Shown one piece after another: positions 11,476 through 59,773 of a DNA stretch of 64,000 nucleotides; the stretch's first letter is position 1; each line of letters starts with the position of its first letter. This DNA is from Patescibacteria group bacterium (GTDB lineage: Bacteria > Patescibacteriota > Patescibacteriia > JBAZBY01), in contig JBAZBY010000001.1 in NCBI GenBank assembly GCA_041671225.1, positions 366,940-430,939 on the forward strand, read 5' to 3'. Both the position numbers and the translations under genes were made by a program. Under the pieces are notes generated by a model. It was not told the origin of the DNA, did not search any database, and was given only the letters and a program-made list of their open reading frames with translations.

Positions 11476-11504
11476 TTGACACCCCACAGGCGAAAATGTA
11501 TACT
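11476..11504 (+). promoter_or_regulatory. rRNA promoter TTGACA-N17-TATACT (with upstream TG)
   Basis: TTGACA at 11476-11481 and TATACT at 11499-11504, about 370 nt upstream of the 16S gene. The leader contains processing-type stems. Confidence 0.6.
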
Positions 11505-11871
11505 ACTCCCTGTTGATAATCTATTAAAAACCTGCGCGTCCGCCCATTTGGGCGAGATACGGCAGGCGGTAAGGAGACCAGTCCACTATCGGGCAAACAT
11601 ACCTCTACCATTCCGTACCTTAATCCCCGCATTGCGGGGGAGAAAAGACAGTAATTCCTCATCAAGTAATCATTGGGACTTACTGTTTTTTCTTCGCTCG
11701 AAAACGCGCAGACACGATCACGCGCGTTGAGCTCGAGAGAGAAATATGTGCATTGAAAAGTGAAATCGTGATAGGAACGACTATTCCGTCGATTCCAGAT
11801 TGTCCATCGTGGTCCGCCTTCGCTTCGCTTTGCGAAGCTATGGCGAGATAGTACGGACAATCGAAACATTA

Positions 11872-13353
<1,482 letters not shown>

Positions 13354-13540
13354 CTAGGGAGTCTCACGTCTCGCAAGAGATTGTGGACGCTTCAGCTCAC
13401 GCGGTGTGAGTGGAGCATCTGACCTAGGAGGTCGGGCGTTGTGCAGTATCATACGATACTGACAACGTTTCAGCATTCATAAATTTTATTTATGAAGGAC
13501 ACGAATCAAATCTATGGTCCGACGGAATAATTGTTTCCTA

Positions 13541-13812
13541 TCACGGTTTTACTCTTCAATGAGATAAAGCCCTCGTAAGAGGGTTTTATTGTTGATCGAA
13601 AGTAACCATAGCGTCCCGCCCCGCAAAGTCCTGAGGTTGCCGAAGGACGACGCGGGGTCACGGTTTTACTTCTCAATGACGATTGTCCTGCGAGAGCAGG
13701 ATTTTTCGTGTATATAATTTGTACCTCGTCTCGCCTCGCCGAAGCCCAAAGGGTGAAGGCGGATTACGGTTTTACTTCTCAATATCGAGAATCCCTCGCA
13801 AGAGGGATTTTT
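13541..13812 (+). repeat. Three tandem ~50-nt terminator modules in the 16S trailer
   Basis: The units begin at 13541, 13658 and 13764. Each has the box (c/t)ACGGTTTTACTYYTCAAT, then a GNRA-tetraloop hairpin (loops GTAA, GAGA, GCAA), then a U-tract. Confidence 0.7.
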
Positions 13813-13848
13813 GTTATACTATGGATGGTCTCATTTCCTGGAGGTACA

Positions 13849-14137
13849 CATGACCATGCTACTGAGCGATATCTGGGCACGTGTCCAGAATACGCTGCTC
13901 CTTGTCGCCATGTATTGCGCGGAATTTCTTCTCGTCGCGCTCATCGCCTTTATCGGCTACGGGTTGACCCGTCACTGGGCGGTCGCGTTTACTGGCGGGG
14001 TCGCCACGTACTGGTTGATCGGATATCTGAGCGATGCACAGGGTCTGTTCCTGAATTCAGTGCCTTGGACGTGGGAGAAGAACACTCGCAGGGCGTGGAT
14101 CTGGCCGTACTACGAGTGCAGAACGTTCTTTCGCTAG
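13849..14137 (+). CDS. Small 2-TM membrane protein (island ORF 1)
   Basis: GGAGG lies 5 nt upstream of the ATG. MTMLLSDIWARVQNTLLLVAMYCAEFLLVALIAFIGYGL... Confidence 0.55.
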
Positions 14138-14182
14138 CGAGCAAGGCTCGCCTCGCTCCCACCGCGCCTCCATTATTTCTTC

Positions 14183-14253
14183 GGGGACGGACAACAATGC
14201 ATCACGCATCTGCTGCCCGTCCCCGCCCACCCTCCCCCGCTGGGGATTTTTTG
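14183..14253 (+). repeat. Structured 3'-UTR / terminator element, copy A
   Basis: GGGGACGGACAACA-ATGCATCACGCAT-CTGCTGCCCGTCCCC followed by a hairpin and T6. It is homologous to 17355-17431. Confidence 0.65.
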
Positions 14254-14336
14254 TTTATCCTTGACACAACACTTTTTTTGTAGTAGCCTTGCACGTTCCT
14301 TCACACCTATAACCCAAACCCGGAAAGGAGTGCGTG

Positions 14337-14972
14337 ATGAACGACGAGGAACGCATAGCGATTAAAACCGCTAGCTATCATGACAATAGGCACGCCTACC
14401 GGGAGTTTCTTCTCGGCAATCGTGCAGAACGCGCCCTTTATGATGGCAAAACGGTTCTGGATCTTGGCTGCGGAATGCCGTGGCGTGCTCGTGCAGTTCG
14501 CGATGCTGGTATTCCTAGCACCGTGATCTCACTCGACCATCGGTGGCTGAATCTCTCTATCGGCCGGCGCCTTCCTGGAAGGGTGCTTGCTGAGGCCTCG
14601 GCGCTCCCATTTTCTGAAGCGACCTTCGATCTCGTATTCAGCCGTGGTGCACCGCCGTGCCTTGTTTGGACCGCTGAGGAATGCGAAGCGCAGTTTGCGG
14701 AACTGCTTCGTGTATTGAAACCGGACGGCTTCGCGATCATTCAGGCTCTGCTTGGCTTCATCGATCGGGAGTGTACCGATCAATGGCTGAGTGAGGGTTC
14801 TTCACGCAAGTCCGGCTATCGCTTCAATGACCCCAACAACCGTCGAGAGATCCTCGAGCGCTCGAATGCCTGGGTGCAGGAGCGGTTCAGTGCGGAGTAT
14901 ATCCGTGTTTTTCAACCGCATGCACCGAGGTGCCTCTCATGGAACTTCGGCGTCTGGATCCTTCGTAAGTAG
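14337..14972 (+). CDS. Class I SAM-dependent methyltransferase
   Basis: Motif I VLDLGCGMP, a post-I acidic residue and LKPDGFAII. GGAAAGGAG RBS upstream. Confidence 0.7.
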   Translation: MNDEERIAIKTASYHDNRHAYREFLLGNRAERALYDGKTVLDLGCGMPWRARAVRDAGIPSTVISLDHRWLNLSIGRRLPGRVLAEASALPFSEATFDLVFSRGAPPCLVWTAEECEAQFAELLRVLKPDGFAIIQALLGFIDRECTDQWLSEGSSRKSGYRFNDPNNRREILERSNAWVQERFSAEYIRVFQPHAPRCLSWNFGVWILRK

Positions 14973-15115
14973 CCCGTACCACCCTGGAGGAGTGGTGCGG
15001 GTTTTCTCATATCCTTTTTTCTTGACAGTACAACCCGAAGCAGATACCGTATCACCATTCGAAGGGTCGCACATTCCACCACGCTCATGCACGCATCACA
15101 GAAGGGAGAAGACAG

Positions 15116-15438
15116 TGCCAGCGAAACGTACGCCTCGCCGAAGCTTTCAGCTCCTTATCTGGAGACGTGAGGATGCTCTTGCCTGGAGGGAGCTTCCCGC
15201 GTCATCGTTGCACAAGGCCGTTGATATTGCACAGGCTCATGCCGCGCGGCACTTCCGGCGTTATCCGTTTATGCCGGTGCGCTGGACAGTTTTTCTTCTC
15301 ACAGGGAAGAAAGCAGCGAAGGATGTTGCCCGCGGGATCGTACGCGCGCCTGTCCGCAAGGGAAGGCCGACGCGCGATTTTTCCGTTCGCGTTGAGACGC
15401 TCATTTACAGCCAGGATATCATGCCCCCGCGGACATGA
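15116..15438 (+). CDS. Hypothetical basic protein (GTG start; island ORF 3)
   Basis: GAAGGGAG lies 7 nt upstream of the GTG. 107 aa, R/K-rich, no family match. Confidence 0.4.
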
Positions 15439-15531
15439 TGTCGCAGCGCGACTCGTTTGCAGGTTCACTGATGCGCGTGCAAGGGGTTCTCGCACGCGTT
15501 CTGCTCGTCGGGATAGACACACAGGAGGTGC

Positions 15532-15807
15532 ATGTTGGTTACTCTGCTGAATCTCCACATGGAAGCTTCTGGGCTTTCATGCCTGCGCTCGATCGAGGTG
15601 GAGGGTCCGCGTACTGTTGCGGAGCTTGCGCTCGCGGCGCAGCGTTCGGTTGAGGAGCGGTTTGGGGATATCCTGACTCCGGGTTCCAGGGTTTCCTGGC
15701 GGATCCACGCACTGGACTGTCCGGACGGCACGTGCCTCGGGTGTGGCATGTCGGACTTCGGCAAGGGCCAGCGCTGCAGGCACACGTTCTACCCCGCGGC
15801 CGCCTGA
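15532..15807 (+). CDS. Small Cys-rich protein (island ORF 4)
   Basis: GGAGG lies 4 nt upstream of the ATG. The C-terminus reads HALDCPDGTCLGCGMSDFGKGQRCRH. Confidence 0.45.
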   Translation: MLVTLLNLHMEASGLSCLRSIEVEGPRTVAELALAAQRSVEERFGDILTPGSRVSWRIHALDCPDGTCLGCGMSDFGKGQRCRHTFYPAAA

Positions 15808-15832
15808 AGGCACGTGGAGGAAGGAGGGGCAC

Positions 15833-16246
15833 ATGAAGAAGCTGTGTGAGGATGGGGAAGTTGTCGTCGAGGTTCGCAGCGAAGGCGGGAAGGGCCATGG
15901 GTTTCTCCTTCTTCTGAGCAAGAGGATGGGTCGTGGCAATTCCTGCAATCTCGCTGAGCATGTCGCGTGGATCATCGACAACATGCCCCGTTGGAAGACG
16001 AAGAGCTACGTGGTATGGACCATGCGCACCTCGATCGGTGGTATTCTCATCAGCGGGAAGCGGCATGTCCGCCGGAGCCCCAAGGGCAAGGTGCGTGTCA
16101 CGCACAACGTCACCTCCCCGGGCGGCGGGAGCAAGCTCGGTCTCACGCCGAAGAAGCCGCTCATTTCTTGCGTCGGCAGGCAGGATCTCATCGATCCAAA
16201 GCTCTTCATCGAGCGGCGCTTGCGCCGACTGAGGGGAAACCGCTAA
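15833..16246 (+). CDS. Hypothetical basic protein (island ORF 5)
   Basis: GGAGG lies 6 nt upstream of the ATG. 137 aa with no family match. Confidence 0.45.
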   Translation: MKKLCEDGEVVVEVRSEGGKGHGFLLLLSKRMGRGNSCNLAEHVAWIIDNMPRWKTKSYVVWTMRTSIGGILISGKRHVRRSPKGKVRVTHNVTSPGGGSKLGLTPKKPLISCVGRQDLIDPKLFIERRLRRLRGNR

Positions 16247-16324
16247 GCGGGAGGGAAAAGTTCTTGGGGAGGTCCGGCATTGCCAGGCCTCCCTCATTTA
16301 TTATATGGGGTTATTTTGTGTATA

Positions 16325-16353
16325 TTGACTTTTTTGACTACATATGGTATACT
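16325..16353 (+). promoter_or_regulatory. Near-consensus promoter TTGACT-N17-TGGTATACT
   Basis: TTGACT at 16325-16330 and an extended -10 TGGTATACT at 16345-16353. It drives the ORF at 16437, which has a GGGAGG RBS. Confidence 0.6.
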
Positions 16354-16436
16354 ATAATGTTCGGCTACAAGAGCGTCTTGTGGGCATGAACGTGGTTTGG
16401 ACCTTGAAAACTCAAAAACATGGGAGGTAAAAGACC

Positions 16437-16817
16437 ATGTTGTACTGGATGCGGTTTTTGTCGCTCTCACTCGCCTTCGGTTCAATCGGTCTCACCGCGT
16501 CGAACATGCCCATCTGGGCGTGTCTCGCCGCCGTTTTGGCACTTACCCTCACCGTGGACCAGTTCTGGTTCGCGGTTCGCAAGGAAGGATTTTTCTTCAC
16601 AATGTTCGGCCCTCGCGAGATGTGGAGACTCATCTGTGAGTCCGGACGCTTCAGCTTGCGCGGCTTCCATCTTCTCTCGGCCACTGCGCATGTTTCTCTC
16701 GTGGTGTGTGTTGCTGGGATCACCATCCTCAACACACTGCCCCCCGCGTTCTCCATGGTCGAACCCCTCGTTCGGCCGTGGGTTGAGAAGTCACCCTTCA
16801 TCGCCGGCCTCTTCTAA
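16437..16817 (+). CDS. Membrane protein (island ORF 6)
   Basis: GGGAGG RBS and three to four TM helices. Confidence 0.55.
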   Translation: MLYWMRFLSLSLAFGSIGLTASNMPIWACLAAVLALTLTVDQFWFAVRKEGFFFTMFGPREMWRLICESGRFSLRGFHLLSATAHVSLVVCVAGITILNTLPPAFSMVEPLVRPWVEKSPFIAGLF

Positions 16818-16841
16818 AGAGCGCTGGGAAAGGAAAGAACG

Positions 16842-17303
16842 ATGAACATCCTGCAGATTCGTGAATTACTCCGTGTGAACCTCACCTACATCACCATCAT
16901 GCGGGCCGAGGTTCGCATGTTCGATTGGCAGGGGATCCTCTCCTGCCTTCTGGGCTGGTTCGCTCTGGTAAAGTGCCAGACTGCGAACGACGCCTGGGGC
17001 CTCCTCGGGGTCGCTGCTTTCCTTCTCATGCTGCGGGCGCTCTTCTCGCTCGCCGAGAAGTTCGACATCCTCGAGTACACCCGCGACCAGACACAGGAGG
17101 TTATCACTAGCCTGAAGGAAGCAGAGGGATTCAAGCCCTCTTTGTCCCTTTGGACGTCCGTACTCCCCTACGAGATGAAGGGGAACATACTCACGAGTAA
17201 GGCGAGACATAACTCCGACCTTGCTTTCTACATCATCTCCGCCTTGGCCACACTCTGGGCCAGCTATGAGGGCATCTCCTGGTTTGTCTGGTACGTGTTT
17301 TGA
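16842..17303 (+). CDS. Membrane protein (island ORF 7)
   Basis: RBS GGAAAGGAAAG. Hydrophobic segments and a W-rich C-terminus. Confidence 0.5.
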   Translation: MNILQIRELLRVNLTYITIMRAEVRMFDWQGILSCLLGWFALVKCQTANDAWGLLGVAAFLLMLRALFSLAEKFDILEYTRDQTQEVITSLKEAEGFKPSLSLWTSVLPYEMKGNILTSKARHNSDLAFYIISALATLWASYEGISWFVWYVF

Positions 17304-17354
17304 GCCATCCCCTCTGAGACTGTGCCGCCATTCGCACCTTCCGCCGCTCTTACG

Positions 17355-17431
17355 AGGGACGGACAACAGCGCATCCTGCGTCTGCTGTCCGTCCCCACTC
17401 ACCTTCCCGTATCACATCGGGAATTTTTTTT
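17355..17431 (+). repeat. Structured 3'-UTR / terminator element, copy B
   Basis: GAGGGACGGACAACA-GCGCATCCTGCGT-CTGCTGTCCGTCCCC followed by a hairpin and T8. The inner stem shows a compensatory T-A to C-G change relative to copy A. Confidence 0.65.
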
Positions 17432-17579
17432 ATAAAAAAGGAGGATCCCATATTCTGACGGATGTAATCCTATTGCTGTGGTTCAAGCGATCAGCGCTTG
17501 CGCCACACGTGGCTTTCTGGTACATTTCCGCTGTTCTGCATCGGAACGATGCCTTTTTCAGTCAGTCAGCAGAATATTT

Positions 17580-17656
17580 GGGCGATTAGCTCAGGTGGTT
17601 AGAGCGCAGCACTGATAATGCTGAGGTCCCAGGTTCGAGTCCTGGATCGCCCACCA
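17580..17656 (+). tRNA. tRNA-Ile (anticodon GAT)
   Basis: Cloverleaf parsed by hand. Anticodon loop CTGATAA and an encoded CCA end. Confidence 0.9.
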
Positions 17657-37130: not shown

Positions 37131-38591
37131 TCATAAATGGCGCCATCGGCTGGTACCCTGCAAAAGCCATACAGAAGCCTCGCGCCCGCCCTGGCCGCTC
37201 GCCACATAACTCTGCTCCGTGCCGGCAGCAACATCGTAGCTTCCTTTCCACCATGGCTCAAATGCGCGACGGGTTGCCACCACGTTGCCTTGAAGCGAAT
37301 AGGCCTTGAAATCCGGGCCGCCGTTGTTCGCGGGAGCAGTGAAGATTTCTGGCCCGTCGTTGGTAGAAAATTGATCTGCGACGCTCACCCGCACGCCGCC
37401 GCGGAAGCGTTCATCATATGCAAAGAACTGACTGTGTACTTTGCCGTTTATGTTGAATACCCGCACATGCGGCCCGCCGCCTGATCCTGCGCCGGTAATG
37501 ATGACCGCCGGACTCACATCGGTTGCGGCATGCGCCGCAACATCAATGCCGCCGCGGAATGTTTCTGCATATGCCAGGAATTGATTCAGGAGCGTGCCGT
37601 CAGAACGAAACACGCGCACATTCGGTGATTCATTCACCGCAGGTCCGGTGATGATCTCGGCAATGCCGTCACCGGTCATGTCCGCCGCGGCAACGCGGAC
37701 GCCGTGCCGCGAACTTTCGCCATATGCAAAGAATTGTTTGAGGACTTTTCCGGTGTTGTTGAATATCCGTACATGCGGCCCGCCGCCAGGGCCTGCGCCT
37801 GTGATGATCTCCTCCACGCCGTCTCCGTTCACGTCGCCGGTTGCCACGTCCAACCCGCCGTGGAAGCTTTCTGCATAGGCAAAGAACCAGGAACGCAGCT
37901 TTCCGCTCGCGCTATATATGCGGACATTGGGTCCTCCGCCAGGGCCGGTTGCAACCACAAGCTCCTCACCCGGACTTCCGGCATCCACATCCCCAACAGC
38001 AACGCTCGCCCCGCCCGTAAAATCGCCGTACGGAAGCAGTTCATTCACCAGCGCATCGCGCGGCACAGCTGCAGGGAGGTGGGTTGCCGCATGCAAACTA
38101 TCATAAGGATTGATCGGCGTGCCATCCGGCATGCGAATTTCAAAATGAAGATGCGGCGGCGTTGTCTCTGCATTGCCGCTATCACCAATATAGCCTAGCA
38201 TCTGTCCGGCTTTGACTTGTGCGCCGTCCATGACGCCCGGCACAAAGGCATTCCGTCCTCCGCCAAGCCCGTCGTCCGTACCCGGAGTGTCATTGTTGAT
38301 ATGGAGGTAGCGGTAACTCCACCCGTCTGCATTCTTTATCTCCACACCCCAGCCATATGATGCTTCAGGAAAGGTGGCCCACTGCACGCGACCGGAAACC
38401 GCCGCAAGAAGCGGACGCATCTTTTCCGCAAAGATATCATTGCCTTCATGGGTGCGGCCGCCGCTCCGCGGTGCGCCGAAGTCATTGCTGTAACTAACCG
38501 GGCCGAATACTGGAAAAACAATATTCCGTATTTCTGCCGCAGATGCCCTTGGAGCCATATTCGGTGCAAGCGCAATACAAAAAACCGCCAC
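37131..38591 (-). CDS. M23 peptidase fused to FG-GAP/VCBS-like repeats (start uncertain: GTG 38591 or ATG 38558)
   Basis: M23 motifs HEGNDIFA and HLHFEIR. This is followed by at least five repeats such as GDVDAGSPGEELVVATGPGGGPNVRIY. The track ORF extends a further 270 codons as an antisense GC artefact. Confidence 0.65.
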   Translation of the reverse strand: MAVFCIALAPNMAPRASAAEIRNIVFPVFGPVSYSNDFGAPRSGGRTHEGNDIFAEKMRPLLAAVSGRVQWATFPEASYGWGVEIKNADGWSYRYLHINNDTPGTDDGLGGGRNAFVPGVMDGAQVKAGQMLGYIGDSGNAETTPPHLHFEIRMPDGTPINPYDSLHAATHLPAAVPRDALVNELLPYGDFTGGASVAVGDVDAGSPGEELVVATGPGGGPNVRIYSASGKLRSWFFAYAESFHGGLDVATGDVNGDGVEEIITGAGPGGGPHVRIFNNTGKVLKQFFAYGESSRHGVRVAAADMTGDGIAEIITGPAVNESPNVRVFRSDGTLLNQFLAYAETFRGGIDVAAHAATDVSPAVIITGAGSGGGPHVRVFNINGKVHSQFFAYDERFRGGVRVSVADQFSTNDGPEIFTAPANNGGPDFKAYSLQGNVVATRRAFEPWWKGSYDVAAGTEQSYVASGQGGREASVWLLQGTSRWRHL

Positions 38592-45145: not shown

Positions 45146-45670
45146 ATGTCCTGGCGCTGGAGACTCGCTCTCGCTTTTCTTCTTGCCGCGATCGCTGTGG
45201 CATTCGGTATTGCCACGCTTGCCCATGCCGCCACTGTCACCACAACGGCCGAGCAGCTTTCGGAACTCAGGAAGCGCGTTCCGGTTACGAAGTGGGAGAG
45301 GGTTGGGATCATCATCCAGTACGGTGAAAACGAGTACGGGGTCTGGGAGCCCTTCTTGGGGCCCAGCGGCGTACTCATCCTCAAGCGTCAAGGCGGTGAG
45401 TGGTTCACCGCAACCGAACGCGACGCGGAGTTCACCACGTTCATATCCCGGATCGATCGCATCTTCTCCGCCGGCCTGCTGCTTGGCGTGCCGGATCATA
45501 TGTATGCCACGCAGCACTGGTGTGGCAGGGGAGATCAAGACCGCATCCTGCGCAACAAGCAGCGGTTCCCGATTTTCTTCGCCAATCTCCGCGGAGAGTT
45601 CAACATCACTGCGGTGCAGGTGGAACTCCCGGACGGAACCAAGCTCGGCCCGCCGTTTCTGGTGGAGTAA
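45146..45670 (+). CDS. Secreted hypothetical protein (GC-rich)
   Basis: GGAGG RBS. Signal peptide MSWRWRLALAFLLAAIAVAFGIATLAHA. Confidence 0.55.
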   Translation: MSWRWRLALAFLLAAIAVAFGIATLAHAATVTTTAEQLSELRKRVPVTKWERVGIIIQYGENEYGVWEPFLGPSGVLILKRQGGEWFTATERDAEFTTFISRIDRIFSAGLLLGVPDHMYATQHWCGRGDQDRILRNKQRFPIFFANLRGEFNITAVQVELPDGTKLGPPFLVE

Positions 45671-47682: not shown

Positions 47683-47959
47683 ATATTTTAATAGCTTACT
47701 CTCCCGTCCCAGTTTTTGAGTGATTTGAATTCCACCCATGCCCGCCGTATCCGCCGTAGTCTCCTGACGAAGGCGGAGAAGGCGGGACCGCAGCTTACGC
47801 GCTCAGTATGCGTTCGAAACCGATAAAAATCAACTTTTCGGGTTGGTAGAATACGTTTTTTTAAAATACTGGACATTTTATCGTTTTTTGCTATACTCCC
47901 CCAGTCTTTAGCAGCTTTGGGTAAGGTCACTTTTTATCACCAATCATTAATATTTTCCT

Positions 47960-49999
47960 ATGTTTCTCGTGACCGTTTTCAGTCTCAGCGCGGCCGGGCT
48001 CATCATCGCCGGTTTTCTTGCGCGATATATCATCAACAGCGATCAGGGTAATGAAAAAATGCAGGAGATCGCGCAGGCCATCCGTCAGGGAGCCGGCGCG
48101 TTTTTGAAGCGCCAATACACGACCATTGCGATCATTTCCGCTATCGTTGCGGTACTCATCTTCGGGCTGTACGCATTCAGCGGACGGCTTGAACTTGGGT
48201 GGAAGACAGCCATTGCGTTCGTGCTCGGCGCCGCGTTTTCCGGTGCGTCCGGATACGTCGGCATGTATATTTCTGTGCGCGCCAATCTGCGCACCGCAGC
48301 AGCCGCGACCCGCAGCGTGAACGAAGCGCTCACCAAGGCGCTGCGCGGCGGTGCGGTTTCCGGCATCTTGGTCGTTGCGCTTTCCCTTTTGGGAGTCGCA
48401 GGATTGTTCGTATTGTACGGCGGCGTGCAGGATCCGGAATCAGTTCCGCTCACCTTGGTCGGTTTCGGCTTCGGCGCGTCATTGGTCGCGCTCTTTGCAC
48501 AGCTCGGTGGCGGTATCTATACCAAAGCAGCTGACGTGGGCGCGGACCTTGTGGGAAAGGTGGAAGCAGGCATTCCGGAAGACGACATCCGCAATCCGGC
48601 CGTCGTTGCAGATTTGGTCGGCGATAACGTCGGCGACTGCGCAGGCCGCGGTGCGGACCTCTTTGAAAGCACGGCCGCAGAGAACATCGGCGCAATGATC
48701 CTCGGAATCGTGTTGTTCCCGGTGTTCGGCATCGGCGGAATCATCTTCCCGCTCGTTGCCCGTTCGTTCGGATTGGTCGCGTCCATCATCGGCATCTTCT
48801 CCGTGAAGGTGCGCGGCGAAGAGGATCCGATGAAAGCATTGAATCGCGGTTTCTATGTGACGGCGCTCCTGGCATTCGTCGGATTCAGTGCCGCAAGCTA
48901 TATGATCTTTAAGGACCACTGGATCGCATTCTCGTTCGCCGGCTTGGTTGGCCTTGTCACAAGTTTGATCTTCTTACTCATCACGCAGTATTACACCGAA
49001 TATCGCTATCGTCCGGTCAAATCCATCGCACAGGCATCATCCACCGGCGGCGCGACCAACATCATCACAGGATTCGCTGTCGGCATGGAAAGCGTTGCTG
49101 GCCCGGTAATCGTCATCGTTGCTGCATTGCTCGGAGCATACTTCATCGGTGAAGGTACGGGACTGGAGGATGGCGGTCTGTATGGAACGGCTGTTGCCAC
49201 CATGGGTATGTTGGCCCCCGCGGCATATGTCCTTGCCATGGATACGTTCGGTCCCATCACGGACAACGCTGGCGGTATCGTGGAAATGTCCGGTTCTCCA
49301 GAAGATGTGCGCAAGCGCACAGACCGTCTTGATGCCGTTGGCAACACCACCAAGGCATTGACCAAGGGATATGCCGTCGGTTCCGCAGCACTCGCTGCAT
49401 TCCTGTTGTTCTCTGCATTCATGACAGACGCGCATCTGGAAAGCATTGACCTTGCGAAGCCCGTTGTCTTCGTTGGTGGGTTCCTCGGCGCCATGCTGGT
49501 CTTCTTGTTCTCATCGCTTGCCATCCGCGCTGTGGGCAAAGGCGCGTACTACATCATCAATGAAGTGCGCCGCCAGTTCAAAGCGGACCCCGGCATCATG
49601 GCAGGAACATCCAAACCAAGCTACACCCAGTGTGTGGACATTGCGACCAAAGGAGCACTGCGTGAAATGGTATGGCCTGGATTGGTGGCCATCATCGGAC
49701 CTACGGCCATCGGATATTTCCTTGGTGCAGAAGCTGTTGGCGCAACGCTCATGGTCGGTACTATCACCGGCGTGGTCATGGCACTTCTGTTGAATAACAG
49801 CGGCGGTGCATGGGACAACGCGAAGAAATATATTGAAATGGGAAATCTTGGCGGCAAGGGTTCCGAGGTTCATAAGGCTGCAGTCGTTGGAGACACGGTC
49901 GGCGACCCGTTCAAGGACACTGCCGGTCCGTCGCTCCACGTCTTTATCAAGTTGCTCGCAACATTGACGCTGGTGCTGGTTCCGCTCTTCCTGCGGTAA
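47960..49999 (+). CDS. hppA: Membrane-bound pyrophosphatase, K+-independent type (GNTTKA)
   Basis: 679 aa with about 16 TM helices. Motifs GGGIYTKAADVGADLVGKVE and DAVGNTTKALTKG. Confidence 0.9.
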   Translation: MFLVTVFSLSAAGLIIAGFLARYIINSDQGNEKMQEIAQAIRQGAGAFLKRQYTTIAIISAIVAVLIFGLYAFSGRLELGWKTAIAFVLGAAFSGASGYVGMYISVRANLRTAAAATRSVNEALTKALRGGAVSGILVVALSLLGVAGLFVLYGGVQDPESVPLTLVGFGFGASLVALFAQLGGGIYTKAADVGADLVGKVEAGIPEDDIRNPAVVADLVGDNVGDCAGRGADLFESTAAENIGAMILGIVLFPVFGIGGIIFPLVARSFGLVASIIGIFSVKVRGEEDPMKALNRGFYVTALLAFVGFSAASYMIFKDHWIAFSFAGLVGLVTSLIFLLITQYYTEYRYRPVKSIAQASSTGGATNIITGFAVGMESVAGPVIVIVAALLGAYFIGEGTGLEDGGLYGTAVATMGMLAPAAYVLAMDTFGPITDNAGGIVEMSGSPEDVRKRTDRLDAVGNTTKALTKGYAVGSAALAAFLLFSAFMTDAHLESIDLAKPVVFVGGFLGAMLVFLFSSLAIRAVGKGAYYIINEVRRQFKADPGIMAGTSKPSYTQCVDIATKGALREMVWPGLVAIIGPTAIGYFLGAEAVGATLMVGTITGVVMALLLNNSGGAWDNAKKYIEMGNLGGKGSEVHKAAVVGDTVGDPFKDTAGPSLHVFIKLLATLTLVLVPLFLR

Positions 50000-50098: not shown

Positions 50099-50270
50099 TG
50101 GAGCGGGTGATCCCGCTTTGCGGGACGGCCTCTTCTGGTCGCCGCCTGCATGAACTTCTATCATCCTACAATAAAAATCTATACTGGAGCGGGTGATCCC
50201 GCTTTGCGGGACGGCCTCTTCTGGTCGCCGCCTGCATGAACTTCTATCATCCTACAATAAAAATCTATAC
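50099..50270 (-). repeat. Two identical tandem 86-bp repeats, each ending in a tRNA-Gly(GCC) 3'-end mimic
   Basis: The units start at 50099 and 50185. Each carries a 12-nt copy of the tRNA 3' end including CCA (TCACCCGCTCCA) preceded by a T-arm-like hairpin tcccgcaaagcggga. Confidence 0.8.
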
Positions 50271-50345
50271 TGGAGCGGGTGACCGGGTTCGAACCGGCGA
50301 CCTCTTCCTTGGCAAGGAAGCGTTCTACCACTGAACTACACCCGC
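50271..50345 (-). tRNA. tRNA-Gly (anticodon GCC)
   Basis: Reverse complement GCGGGTGTAGTTCAGTGGTAGAACGCTTCCTTGCCAAGGAAG...TTCGAACCCGGTCACCCGCTCCA. Confidence 0.9.
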
Positions 50346-57787: not shown

Positions 57788-59773
57788 TTAGATGAAAAGT
57801 GGTGCAAGGATGAGAGAGACGACGGCCATGAGTTTGATGAGAATGTTCATGGCTGGTCCAGATGTGTCCTTGAATGGATCACCAACGGTGTCGCCGACCA
57901 CTGCAGCTTTGTGTGGCTCGCTGCCTTTGCCGCCGTGCGCGCCACCTTCGATGTATTTCTTTGCGTTGTCCCAAGCGCCGCCAGCGTTTGCCATCATAAG
58001 CGCGAGGAGTACGCCAGTGATGGTTGCGCCAGCGAGCAGGCCACCAAGAGCTTCCTTACCCAAGAGGAATCCCACGAGCACAGGAGCGACTACCGCAAGC
58101 ACGCCCGGAAGGATCATTTCTTTGAGTGCTGCGTTGGTGCTGATAGCAATAGTGCGAGCGGAGTCCGGTTTTGCGGTGCCTTCAAGTAGACCAGGAATTT
58201 CCCGGAATTGACGACGAACTTCTTGCACCATACTGCGCGCTGCCTTTCCGACAGATGTCATGGTAAGTGACGCAATCAGGAAGGGAAGAATGCCACCGAT
58301 AAACGCACCAACAATGGTCTCTGATTTCGTAATATCAATGGATTCTAATTTCACTGCCGTAGTATATGCAGAGAAGAGGGCGAGTGATGTGAGTGCTGCG
58401 GAGCCGATGGCAAAACCTTTGCCCATTGCGGCTGTCGTGTTTCCGAGCGCGTCGAGGCGGTCGGTTATTTTACGTGTATTTTCACCAAGACCGGACATTT
58501 CTGAAATACCGCCTGCGTTGTCCGCGATGGGTCCATATGCGTCAACAGACATCACAACGCCGATGGTTGCGAGCATGCCAACGGCGGAGATGCCGATGCC
58601 GTAGAGACCGGTGAGTTTGAAGCCGATAAAGATCGCCGCAGCAATGATGAGTACGGGGAGCGCAACCGATTCCATGCCAATGGCAAGGCCAGTGATGATG
58701 TTTGTTGCCGGGCCTGTTTCAGATGCCTCAGCGATTTTGCGTATGGGGCGTCCTGCGGTGTAATACTCGGTGATGAGCCCAATAGCGATTCCCGCGAGCG
58801 TACCCGTGACAACAGACCAGAAGACAGCGGTCGGTAATTTCAGCCAAACCCCAATGACATATGCCGCGCCGAGCAATACAACAGCCGCGACGTATGTGAC
58901 ATAGCGGAGCACCTTTGCAGGGTCGATGTTTTTGAGAACGCGAACAGAGAGAATGCCAAGAATAGATGCGATGAGTCCGATAGCAGCAATGAGAATAGGA
59001 AATACCATGTAATCCATCTTTGCAGCAGCGTATGCAGAACCGGTTGCTCCAATCGCAATGGCTGCCACGATCGAGCTGACATTTGATTCAAAGAGGTCGG
59101 CACCAAGCCCTGCTACGTCACCGACGTTGTCGCCAACACTATCTGCGATGGATGCAGGATTACGGGGGTCATCTTCTGGGATGCCTTGTTCAACTTTTCC
59201 AACAAGGTCGCCGCCAACGTCTGCCGTTTTGGTGTAAATACCGCCGCCAACGCGAGCAAAGAGCGCAATGGACGAACCGCCCATGGCGAGTCCAGAAAGC
59301 ACGATTGATGGGTCAACATCCGTTGAGAAGTATTGGAAGTACAGACCAAGGCCAATGAGTCCGAGCGATGCGACAGAGAGTCCCATCACGGCACCGCCGG
59401 AAAAAGCCGTCACAAGCGCGCGGGCTGTTCCGCCCTCACTCGCCGCTTGTGCTGTGCGTACATTTGCTTTGGTTGCTGCCTGCATACCAAAGATACCCGC
59501 AAGCATAGAGAGCACGCCGCCGGATATAAAGGCAACAGCAGTCCATGTGCCGATCTGCCACCAGAGGAGCGCAAAGACAACAACCATAAACACAGAGAGA
59601 ATACTGTATTCACGCTTCAGGAAGACGAGCGCGCCTTCATGAATGGCGGCTGCGATTTCCTGCATTTTTTCGTTCCCCGGGTTTTGCCGTTTTACGAGCG
59701 CATAAAAGACCCAGGCAAAGATGAGTCCGATGGCTCCGATGCCTGCACTGATGAATCCCAGATTATCCAACAT
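57788..59773 (-). CDS. hppA: Membrane-bound pyrophosphatase, K+-dependent type (GNTTAA)
   Basis: 661 aa. Motifs [20 protein letters not shown] and [13 protein letters not shown]. Confidence 0.9.

Follow-up and report, generated by a model that had tools for sequence, protein, structure and literature searches.

The insert between the 16S rRNA gene and tRNA-Ile

The window analysed is a 64 kb stretch of DNA from an uncultured Patescibacteria bacterium MAG with a genome of 1.03 Mb. Here the 16S rRNA gene and the gene for tRNA-Ile are separated by an insert of 4.2 kb, the genes of which have no close homologues. A module of ~75 nt (unit 72-78 nt) is present twice within the insert. The 16S rRNA gene, all of the insert ORFs, tRNA-Ile, tRNA-Phe, nth, and both modules share the + strand. 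The features of the locus are as follows.

11868..13353, + strand, 16S rRNA gene (Rfam SSU_rRNA_bacteria, 1443 bits), left boundary of the insert
13850..14137, + strand, hydrophobic ORF of 95 aa (NCBI WCV86_01960), with module copy 1 at its 3′ end
14183..14256, + strand, module copy 1
14337..14972, + strand, class I SAM-dependent methyltransferase (Pfam Methyltransf_11 and Methyltransf_25), first gene 3′ of copy 1
16437..17303, + strand, two hydrophobic ORFs in a putative unit that ends at module copy 2 (126 aa at 16437-16817 and 153 aa at 16842-17303)
17355..17434, + strand, module copy 2
17580..17656, + strand, tRNA-Ile(GAT), right boundary of the insert, starting 149 nt 3′ of copy 2

Four small putative transcription units make up the insert, and two of the four end at copies of the module. 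The 95-aa ORF has a hydropathy peak of 2.57 and a GGAGG 5′ of its ATG; it has no close homologue and no Pfam, PHROG, or PADLOC match at the thresholds used. Homologues of the methyltransferase are distant only (E 1e-6 or worse), and its gene is followed by its own hairpin and TTTT at 14973-15003, which are unrelated to the module. A promoter-like site is present at 16325-16353, 5′ of the unit containing the 126-aa and 153-aa ORFs, and the 153-aa protein matches only itself among 5.8 billion clusters. When all of the insert ORFs are compared with Pfam (E up to 0.1), methyltransferase domains are found and no other family. A gene for RNase III is located ~7 kb upstream of the window in the same genome.

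A contig of another sequencing run has the insert with 100 % identity, and no empty site (the locus without the insert) was seen. The closest relatives of nth (70-75 % identity) are on contigs that are broken at tRNA-Phe or that have a different upstream context. These relatives accordingly yield neither an empty site nor an orthologous element for comparison.

In the initial annotation of this DNA, the two copies were placed at both flanks of an island, each directly after the stop of a membrane-protein ORF. They do follow such ORFs, although at a distance of 45 and 52 nt from the stop codons rather than directly, and copy 1 is not at a flank, being ~830 nt inside the 16S-tRNA-Ile insert and 3′ of its first ORF.

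Structure of the module

In both copies the module consists of an imperfect hairpin of 16-17 bp (H1), a C-rich linker of 8 nt, and a second hairpin (H2) followed by a run of T6-T8. The parts of each copy are as follows.

14183..14224, + strand, copy 1 H1, GGGGACGG-ACAACA-AUGC [AUCAC] GCAU-C-UGCUG-C-CCGUCCCC
14225..14232, + strand, copy 1 linker, GCCCACCC, C-rich, unpaired in the MFE and centroid folds
14233..14246, + strand, copy 1 H2, UCCCC [CGCU] GGGGA, 5 bp (4 G-C), terminator-like in the scan
14247..14256, + strand, copy 1 T-run, TTTTTTGTTT
17355..17396, + strand, copy 2 H1, 17 pairs with one A.C mismatch and one bulged U, RNAfold -29.2 kcal/mol
17397..17403, + strand, copy 2 linker, ACUCACC, 8 nt when the unpaired C17396 is counted
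17404..17423, + strand, copy 2 H2, UUCCCG [ UAUCACAU ] CGGGAA, 6 bp (4 G-C), terminator-like in the scan
17424..17431, + strand, copy 2 T-run, 8 T

In H1 of copy 1 there are 16 pairs, interrupted by two A.C mismatches and a bulged C (RNAfold -22.2 kcal/mol for 42 nt). The linker and the 5′ arm of H2 in this copy read CACCCUCCCC, which includes CCUCC. The initial annotation had described an outer stem and an inner hairpin, with a conserved ACAACA before the latter and CTGCTG after it. Both stems are present, but as parts of a single stem that is imperfect yet continuous (16-17 bp, one bulge), and ACAACA and CTGCTG, rather than being unpaired, pair with each other (C-G, A-U, A.C, C-G, A-U) as the two arms of the middle of H1.

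Compared with dinucleotide shuffles, the folds have z = -3.9 for copy 1 and z = -7.6 for copy 2, with none of 200 shuffles as stable. The same two hairpins are obtained from both copies when upstream context is included in the folding, and H2 accounts, by difference, for ~ -9 kcal/mol of the folding energy at each site. Among 25 terminator-like sites in the window, the upstream 55 nt of the two copies are the most stable (-29.2 and -25.1 kcal/mol; mean -12.6, sd 6.1).

Similarity and number of copies

The presence of two copies at these positions, as first annotated, is borne out by their alignment. They are identical at 44 of 53 ungapped bases (83 %), in direct orientation, and 3172 bp apart. 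By blastn in the 64 kb window, one copy matches the other with E about 1e-10, which rules out chance similarity, and all other matches have E about 0.4 or weaker. The edges of the homology are sharp, at the foot of H1 and at the T-run, and the flanks are unalignable (p 0.27-0.83). The unpaired linker and its flanks are ~80 % identical between the copies. Segmental duplication of a gene together with its terminator was rejected, as the upstream ORFs are dissimilar and the flanks do not align.

No third copy was found by blastn with a word size of 7 in the 64 kb window. A covariance model, run across the window and ~9 kb beyond each end both with its default filters and without filters, recovers the two copies at about 80 bits and no further copy; the next-best match (15 bits, at 45527) is inside a CDS. 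The search for copies in the genome itself thus spans about 84 kb of 1.03 Mb, with two found. Of the two outcomes named beforehand as counting against a structured element, one was observed, as only two copies are known, yet the other was not, since pairing is kept. The 13-mer GGGACGGACAACA has exact matches at the two module sites only. With up to two mismatches it has eight matches against 1.3 expected, four of the eight being both arms of both copies; a pair of DNA uptake sequences was rejected, the arm 13-mer not being over-represented outside the two copies. Elsewhere in this genome, other small duplicated hairpin segments are seen near RNA genes (four cases).

No relatives were identified in wider searches. 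With gathering thresholds, Rfam gave no match on the module, and with E up to 10 there was none on H1 or the linker. The sole overlap was with H2 of copy 1, where STnc310 matches the minus strand (19 bits, E 3.6), and a known RNA family was rejected on this result. A degenerate pattern had 42 matches in GTDB genomes and 27 in JGI metagenomes, all of which are unrelated hairpins or coding sequence without the linker and H2. There were no matches to a stricter pattern over metagenomes, nor in a pattern scan of viral contigs; such scans demand exact matches, so that their sensitivity is low and diverged copies are missed. Comparison of the whole insert with phages and plasmids by blastn gave no match.

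Differences between the copies

In H1, the pair at columns 16/26 is U-A in copy 1 and C-G in copy 2, a compensatory change, and that at columns 15/27 is A-U in copy 1 and a G.U wobble in copy 2; the swap and the wobble of the inner hairpin described in the initial annotation are therefore real. At columns 9/34, A.C in copy 1 corresponds to A-U in copy 2, so that on the + strand this pair is broken. The pair table of H1 accordingly has one compensatory pair, one wobble change, and one broken pair. There are seven differences in the 42 nt of H1, for which simulation gives p = 0.005 and 0.13, according to which copy is taken as the ancestor. In H2, the top pair changes from C-G to G-C and the base from C.U to U-A (simulation p = 0.009 and 0.10). 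Most random substitutions would preserve the two hairpins less well than the observed differences do, which, coming from two sequences, is modest support.

Column shuffling as a control does not discriminate, with 255 of 500 shuffles reaching the observed value. Two sequences do not suffice to tell covariation apart from chance or from palindrome-templated correction of the DNA. The base changes had been taken to support a functional RNA fold, but a functional RNA family shown by covariation is not sustained by two sequences, one compensatory pair in each of H1 and H2, this shuffle result, and the lack of a third copy in the searches above.

The minus strand folds better than the + strand, as the A.C mismatches of H1 become G.U and the stem is nearly perfect. 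This advantage is not significant, because only two independent events favour the minus strand against one wobble favouring the + strand. An RNA from the minus strand was rejected on the same count of events and on the absence of a minus-strand promoter-like site or U-tract.

Candidacy of the module as an intrinsic terminator

The two elements are best read as paralogous copies of one + strand 3′-end module. The features expected of an intrinsic terminator are present in both copies, with a G+C-rich hairpin at once followed by a U-tract, and H2 with its T-run was called terminator-like at both sites by a consensus scan, in agreement with the second hairpin and T6-8 of the initial annotation. 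Together with the position of the copies 3′ of stop codons, on the strand of all neighbouring genes, and with differences that preserve structure, this supports the terminator role that had been among those suggested. Just 3′ of copy 1, at 14261, there is a -35-like hexamer, TTGACA (read by eye), and the same layout of a terminator and then TTGACA is seen, partly by eye, in the other units of the insert.

The module is therefore probably a duplicated tandem-hairpin intrinsic (Rho-independent) terminator that closes two transcription units. RNA polymerase coming from the upstream membrane-protein gene would transcribe H1 and next H2. H2 would fold in the RNA exit channel at the time when the active site contains the U-tract as a weak rU:dA hybrid, leading to release of the transcript. 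On the released mRNA, H1, 8 nt upstream, would be a back-up hairpin, making a tandem terminator, and as a 3′ stem-loop it would block 3′-to-5′ exonucleases. The modules together would insulate the units of the insert from each other and tRNA-Ile from read-through. Termination is thus predicted at these sites from the sequence, H1 may also stabilise the transcript, and the second copy presumably came from a local copy event. The module looks like an ordinary terminator that was copied once and not like a new RNA family.

There is evidence against a plain terminator. Structure suffices for termination, yet the linker and the bases beside it are ~80 % identical, the homology is abruptly bounded, and the flanks of the module cannot be aligned. 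The sharp bounds and the identity of the linker are more easily reconciled with recent copying of a discrete unit, or with an additional constraint on the sequence, than with an old duplication maintained for terminator function only. An ordinary terminator explains every feature of the module but one, the 83 % identity within sharp bounds.

Alternative explanations

The same feature would be accounted for if the module were a low-copy portable palindromic element of REP/MITE type that carries a terminator, or belonged to a repeat family of an unsampled donor genome, and had been copied as a discrete unit of 72-78 nt. In addition to the sharp edges and the unrelated flanks and upstream ORFs, both copies are within the 4.2 kb insert with none elsewhere in about 84 kb, and there are the other small duplicated hairpin segments near RNA genes. 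However, only two copies are known, inspection by eye shows neither terminal inverted repeats nor a target-site duplication at the borders of the unit, the insert ORFs match only methyltransferase domains in Pfam, and no relatives were found in genome, metagenome, or viral collections, albeit with exact-pattern scans of low sensitivity; a portable element is possible but doubtful. A different function is implied if the module is the end of a small RNA derived from a 3′ UTR or a cis-riboregulator, with H1 as a protective or processing stem, the linker as a seed pairing with Shine-Dalgarno sequences, and H2 as the terminator. Both copies keep the order of stem-loop, unpaired C-rich tract, and terminator, and the linker is conserved though a terminator needs no particular sequence there. 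CACC[C/U]UCCC at the linker resembles CACCUCC at the 3′ end of 16S rRNA, with CCUCC in copy 1, and there is the RNase III gene upstream of the window. Yet there is no promoter-like site 5′ of H1 within the ORF ends, Rfam has nothing for H1 or the linker, and the two copies are without conservation in other genomes. The C-tract is, moreover, mostly paired in the stems of H1 and H2, and the resemblance to the anti-Shine-Dalgarno sequence, at 6-7 nt, could be chance. Such an RNA is quite improbable. Taken more broadly, the unit of ~75 nt as a portable terminator cassette copied whole, either from a donor repeat family (of a phage, a plasmid, or a host, and Patescibacteria-associated) or as a small-RNA body from a 3′ UTR with a selected anti-Shine-Dalgarno-like linker, is unlikely.

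The copies had also been suggested to mark the ends of a mobile cassette, here of 3.1 kb. Candidates for such ends are attC-like sites, end hairpins of IS200/IS605 type, and att sites. Two imperfect palindromes in direct orientation, 3172 bp apart, each 3′ of an ORF and with a nearly perfect stem on the minus strand, have the appearance of such ends. Against this, the copies are 83 % identical whereas att repeats are exact, the core motifs RYYYAAC and GTTRRRY of attC are missing on both strands, and a canonical T-run is a terminator feature. Several genes are present in the interior, with one promoter called by the scan and promoter- and terminator-like sites read by eye. At E up to 0.1, the interior ORFs gave no domain of a transposase, TnpB, integrase, or reverse transcriptase, nor did any of them match a recombinase or a phage family at the thresholds used. 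Copy 1 is away from the edge of the insert, and the insert is identical in another sample with no empty site seen. The claim is therefore not retained, and sites of recombination or transposition are highly unlikely. A tandem terminator that was duplicated remains the preferred reading of the module.

Significance and comparison with known systems

If the module is a terminator, it adds little beyond an example of strong terminators that partition unique genes, here lodged in the former 16S-tRNA-Ile spacer of a reduced Patescibacteria genome. Its significance would increase should the unit turn out to be a discrete element that is copied as such, or the source of a small RNA. For Patescibacteria there seem to be few descriptions of regulatory RNAs or of small mobile repeats, and a single search of the literature on intrinsic terminators in the group gave no result.

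In integrons, attC sites have the inverse core RYYYAAC on the 5′ side and the core GTTRRRY on the 3′ side, and each cassette contains a single promoterless ORF, with an integrase or an array of attC sites in the vicinity. The module is like attC in being an imperfect palindrome after an ORF, repeated directly, of which the strand opposite the ORF folds better. It differs in that it has a U-tract terminator and that the supposed cassette is multi-gene with its own promoter-like sites. Neither GGACAAC...GCTGYCC on the + strand nor GGRCAGC...GTTGTCC on the minus strand fits the cores, and the 3172 bp between only two sites hold six called ORFs and internal promoter- and terminator-like sites; attC was rejected both as site and as cassette. 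Ends of IS200/IS605 elements were likewise rejected, as no transposase or TnpB match was found in the interior ORFs with Pfam, PHROG, or PADLOC.

The retroregulation site of phage lambda, sib/tI, is an RNase III-sensitive hairpin that overlaps a terminator. The long stem of H1 beside a terminator in a 3′ UTR, in a genome with an RNase III gene, is similar purely by analogy; here neither a competing long-range pairing nor a pair of promoters that differ in read-through is in evidence. REP and BIME sequences are dispersed in tens to hundreds of copies per genome and are associated with a RAYT (Y1 transposase) gene. The module resembles these, and terminator-bearing miniature elements such as the Correia elements of Neisseria, as a repeated extragenic imperfect palindrome at the 3′ ends of genes that could plausibly serve as terminator or mRNA stabiliser. 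With two copies in the about 84 kb covered of the 1.03 Mb genome, it may be less numerous than REP and BIME sequences; no relatives were found elsewhere, and the insert ORFs include no RAYT domain by Pfam. A MITE was rejected, as the unit starts with GGGGACGG and ends with GGGGA-T6-8, which do not mirror each other as inverted repeats, and as there is nothing in common between the flanks.

Terminators of the 'U-shaped' class, of which WebGeSTer DB lists ~100,000 (PMC3013805), consist of tandem hairpins separated by less than 50 nt, and clusters of hairpins occur at the ends of operons (PMC8355165). The module is alike in having two hairpins within this distance 3′ of a stop codon, the second with a U-trail, and in both copies 8 nt separate H1 from H2. 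It differs from this class in that H1 is longer and more stable than is usual in this genome, and in that the whole unit, including the unpaired linker, is duplicated with 83 % identity behind two unrelated genes.

The 16S rRNA unit and the adjoining insert

The sequence belongs to a Patescibacteria MAG (NCBI proteins MFA6511876.1, WCV86_01985, and MFA6511871.1, WCV86_01960; ENA contig ERZ27249449 k141_148580; longest contig 1.03 Mb). The whole 64 kb lacks a 23S rRNA gene. The rRNA genes are therefore unlinked, an arrangement previously reported in the Patescibacteria (bioRxiv 10.1101/705046). The 16S rRNA gene looks like a stand-alone unit, beyond which tRNA-Ile is not reached until 17580, with tRNA-Phe and nth after it.

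Features of the 16S rRNA unit
11476-11504, promoter-like site of the 16S rRNA gene
11751-11777 and 13535-13561, 16S processing-stem arms
11868-13353, 16S rRNA gene
13540-13587, 13657-13704, and 13763-13810, three tandem copies of a 3′ stem arm plus terminator hairpin (diverged, 65-75%)

The 4.2 kb insert between the 16S rRNA gene and tRNA-Ile (13354-17579) carries seven ORFs, all on the + strand: a 95-aa hydrophobic protein, a class I methyltransferase with distant homologues only (none closer than E 1e-6), two further hydrophobic proteins, including one of 153 aa for which a homologue search returned only itself, and three small ORFs of doubtful reality. Apart from weak matches of the methyltransferase, PHROGs and PADLOC gave none for these ORFs, and blastn of the insert against phage and plasmid collections found no match. 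Between 14972 and 16437, where G+C is raised (0.60-0.62) and ORFs overlap on both strands, the small called ORFs (107, 91, and 137 aa) match no family and may not be real genes. The insert is 100% identical in a Logan contig from another sequencing run (L048, matching 13333-17625); the breakpoints of this contig and a second, L002, fall precisely at the 3′ end of 16S and within tRNA-Ile.

Four hairpin and T-run sites split the insert into four small units.

Terminator-like sites of the insert
14183-14256, + strand, module copy 1; then TTGACA at 14261 (by eye)
14973-15003, hairpin and T-run; then TTGACA at 15022 (by eye)
about 16266-16310, hairpin and T-run; then TTGACT-17-TATACT at 16325-16353 (scan)
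17355-17434, + strand, module copy 2; no promoter-like site seen before tRNA-Ile

Only two of the four are paralogous, the sites at 14973-15003 and about 16266-16310 being unrelated. The initial annotation had placed the copies at both flanks of an island, directly after ORF stops. Copy 1 in fact lies within the insert rather than at a flank, and each copy does follow a stop, at a distance of 45 nt (95-aa ORF to copy 1) or 52 nt (153-aa ORF to copy 2). Directly past the T-run of copy 2 there is a strong Shine-Dalgarno-like AAAAAAGGAGGA (within 17434-17589) with no ATG, GTG, or TTG at proper spacing; an ATT at 17452 starts a 45-codon hydrophobic frame that reaches into tRNA-Ile.

Architecture and pairing of the module

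Both stretches are present as first described. They share 44 of 53 bases in an ungapped alignment (blastn E about 1e-10 in the window, the next-best match being no better than E about 0.4), and adopt one common fold with or without upstream context, with energies (z = -3.9 and -7.6) that none of 200 shuffles equalled.

Elements of the module (+ strand)
14183-14224 (copy 1) and 17355-17396 (copy 2), H1, 42-nt imperfect hairpin, from the fold
between H1 and H2 in both copies, C-rich unpaired linker, 8 nt, from the fold
14233-14246 (copy 1) and 17404-17423 (copy 2), H2, short G+C-rich hairpin, from the fold
directly 3′ of H2, T-run, T6 or T8, from the sequence

The ACAACA and CTGCTG segments, previously listed apart from the stems, are not loops: they face each other as opposite arms of the mid-section of H1, with the pairs C-G, A-U, A.C, C-G, and A-U. 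H1 is therefore a single stem of 16-17 bp with one bulge, rather than an outer stem and an inner hairpin. The copies differ in H1 at seven positions, six of them transitions, and the proposed swap of T-A to C-G with a G-U wobble is borne out at columns 16/26 and 15/27.

Differences between the copies in H1
columns 16/26, U-A in copy 1, C-G in copy 2, compensatory
columns 15/27, A-U in copy 1, G.U in copy 2, wobble, pairing kept
columns 22 and 23, loop in both copies, no effect
column 1, unpaired end in both copies, no effect
columns 9/34, A.C in copy 1, A-U in copy 2, pair broken in copy 1

In simulations that scattered the observed numbers of transitions and transversions at random, the share of sequences whose + strand fold matched or beat that of the real descendant was 0.005 with copy 1 as ancestor and 0.13 with copy 2 as ancestor. 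The H2 arms were aligned with the conserved CACC and GGGA as anchors. Copy 1 then has C-G as its top pair and C.U at the base, where copy 2 has G-C and U-A; simulation gave p = 0.009 and 0.10. Together, the simulations and pair changes give modest support, from two sequences, for preservation of both hairpins. A shuffle control of the pair table was non-discriminating (observed value reached in 255 of 500), and an identical pattern would result from palindrome-templated correction of the DNA. The - strand folds better because A.C mismatches of the + strand become G.U there; two events favour the - strand against one wobble favouring the +. A terminator and promoter scan found no U-tract on the - strand and no promoter-like site nearby.

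Further copies and alternative readings

No Rfam family matches the module at gathering thresholds; relaxing the cut-off to E 10 yields a single 19-bit match, on the - strand over H2 of copy 1. A covariance model of H1 and the linker (R1) recovered only the two copies (81 and 80 bits; next best 15 bits, inside a coding region) in the window with filters off and, with default filters, in approximately 9 kb on either side of the window and in two contigs from relatives; the search covered about 84 kb, some 8%, of the source genome. In collection scans, which match patterns exactly, all hits of a loose, degenerate pattern to the species-representative genomes (596 Gb) and to the JGI metagenomes were unrelated hairpins or coding sequence; it had none in IMG/VR, and a stricter pattern had none in the JGI metagenomes. 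These searches and blastn gave no evidence that the module forms a functional RNA family. The closest nth relatives (70-75% identity) are on contigs that end at tRNA-Phe or have a different upstream context; in the closest (L080, 75%; region 940-985), the place of tRNA-Phe upstream is taken by an ordinary terminator and a pair of coiled-coil-like ORFs, therefore synteny there is not conserved in the lineage.

Identity extends to the unpaired linker (about 80%) and ends abruptly at the borders of the module; neither the flanks nor the upstream genes of the two copies are related. A plain terminator role leaves this unexplained; it points either to the unit having been copied as a discrete piece fairly recently or to an additional constraint on its sequence, such as a C-rich, anti-Shine-Dalgarno-like seed. 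An identity as a portable element or as the body of a small RNA is unlikely; if true, it would be moderately interesting for Patescibacteria. The suggestion that the copies mark mobile-cassette ends is not supported: the repeats are inexact, and searches of the interior ORFs (Pfam, PHROG, and PADLOC) gave no recombinase or transposase domain; the multi-gene interior and attached T-run terminator likewise speak against cassette, attC, or IS200/IS605 ends. The core motifs of attC sites are absent, neither the terminal inverted repeats nor the target-site duplication of a MITE were seen, and the arm sequence is not over-represented beyond the two copies, as a DNA uptake sequence would be.

Other repeats in the window

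Two copies (90% identical) of a 29-nt hairpin, ATCCGCCGTAG.CTCC...GAAGGCGGA, lie after tRNA-Phe (17990-18018) and beside tRNA-Leu (47749-47777); the former precedes a terminator-like site (18039-18060), making another hairpin and terminator pair. At 50099-50345, a perfect 86-nt tandem duplication adjoins tRNA-Gly(GCC) (50271-50345, - strand), and each unit ends by repeating the 3′ end of the tRNA (..TCACCCGCTCCA, - strand), as integrative-element att-site scars do. Four units of a 153-nt-period repeat (37387-37950, 66-81% identity) probably encode a repeated protein domain. A 203-nt inverted repeat (48465-48667 and 59087-59289, about 10.4 kb apart, 73% complementarity) could stem from a pair of oppositely oriented paralogous genes.

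A probable tandem-hairpin terminator

In sequence, H2 and the U-tract show every feature of an intrinsic terminator, in the expected position and on the correct strand (scan), in agreement with the terminator originally proposed. Upstream structure is far more stable at the two copies than at any other of the window's 25 terminator-like sites, thus H1 is special to the module and not a habit of the genome. H1 may act both as a back-up or pausing hairpin and as a 3′ stem-loop shielding the released mRNA; an RNase III gene is present in the genome, so processing at H1 is also possible. With H1 8 nt upstream of H2, the module is, judged from sequence, most likely an intrinsic terminator of the tandem-hairpin class, and would be a further instance of a class already catalogued (PMC3013805; PMC8355165).
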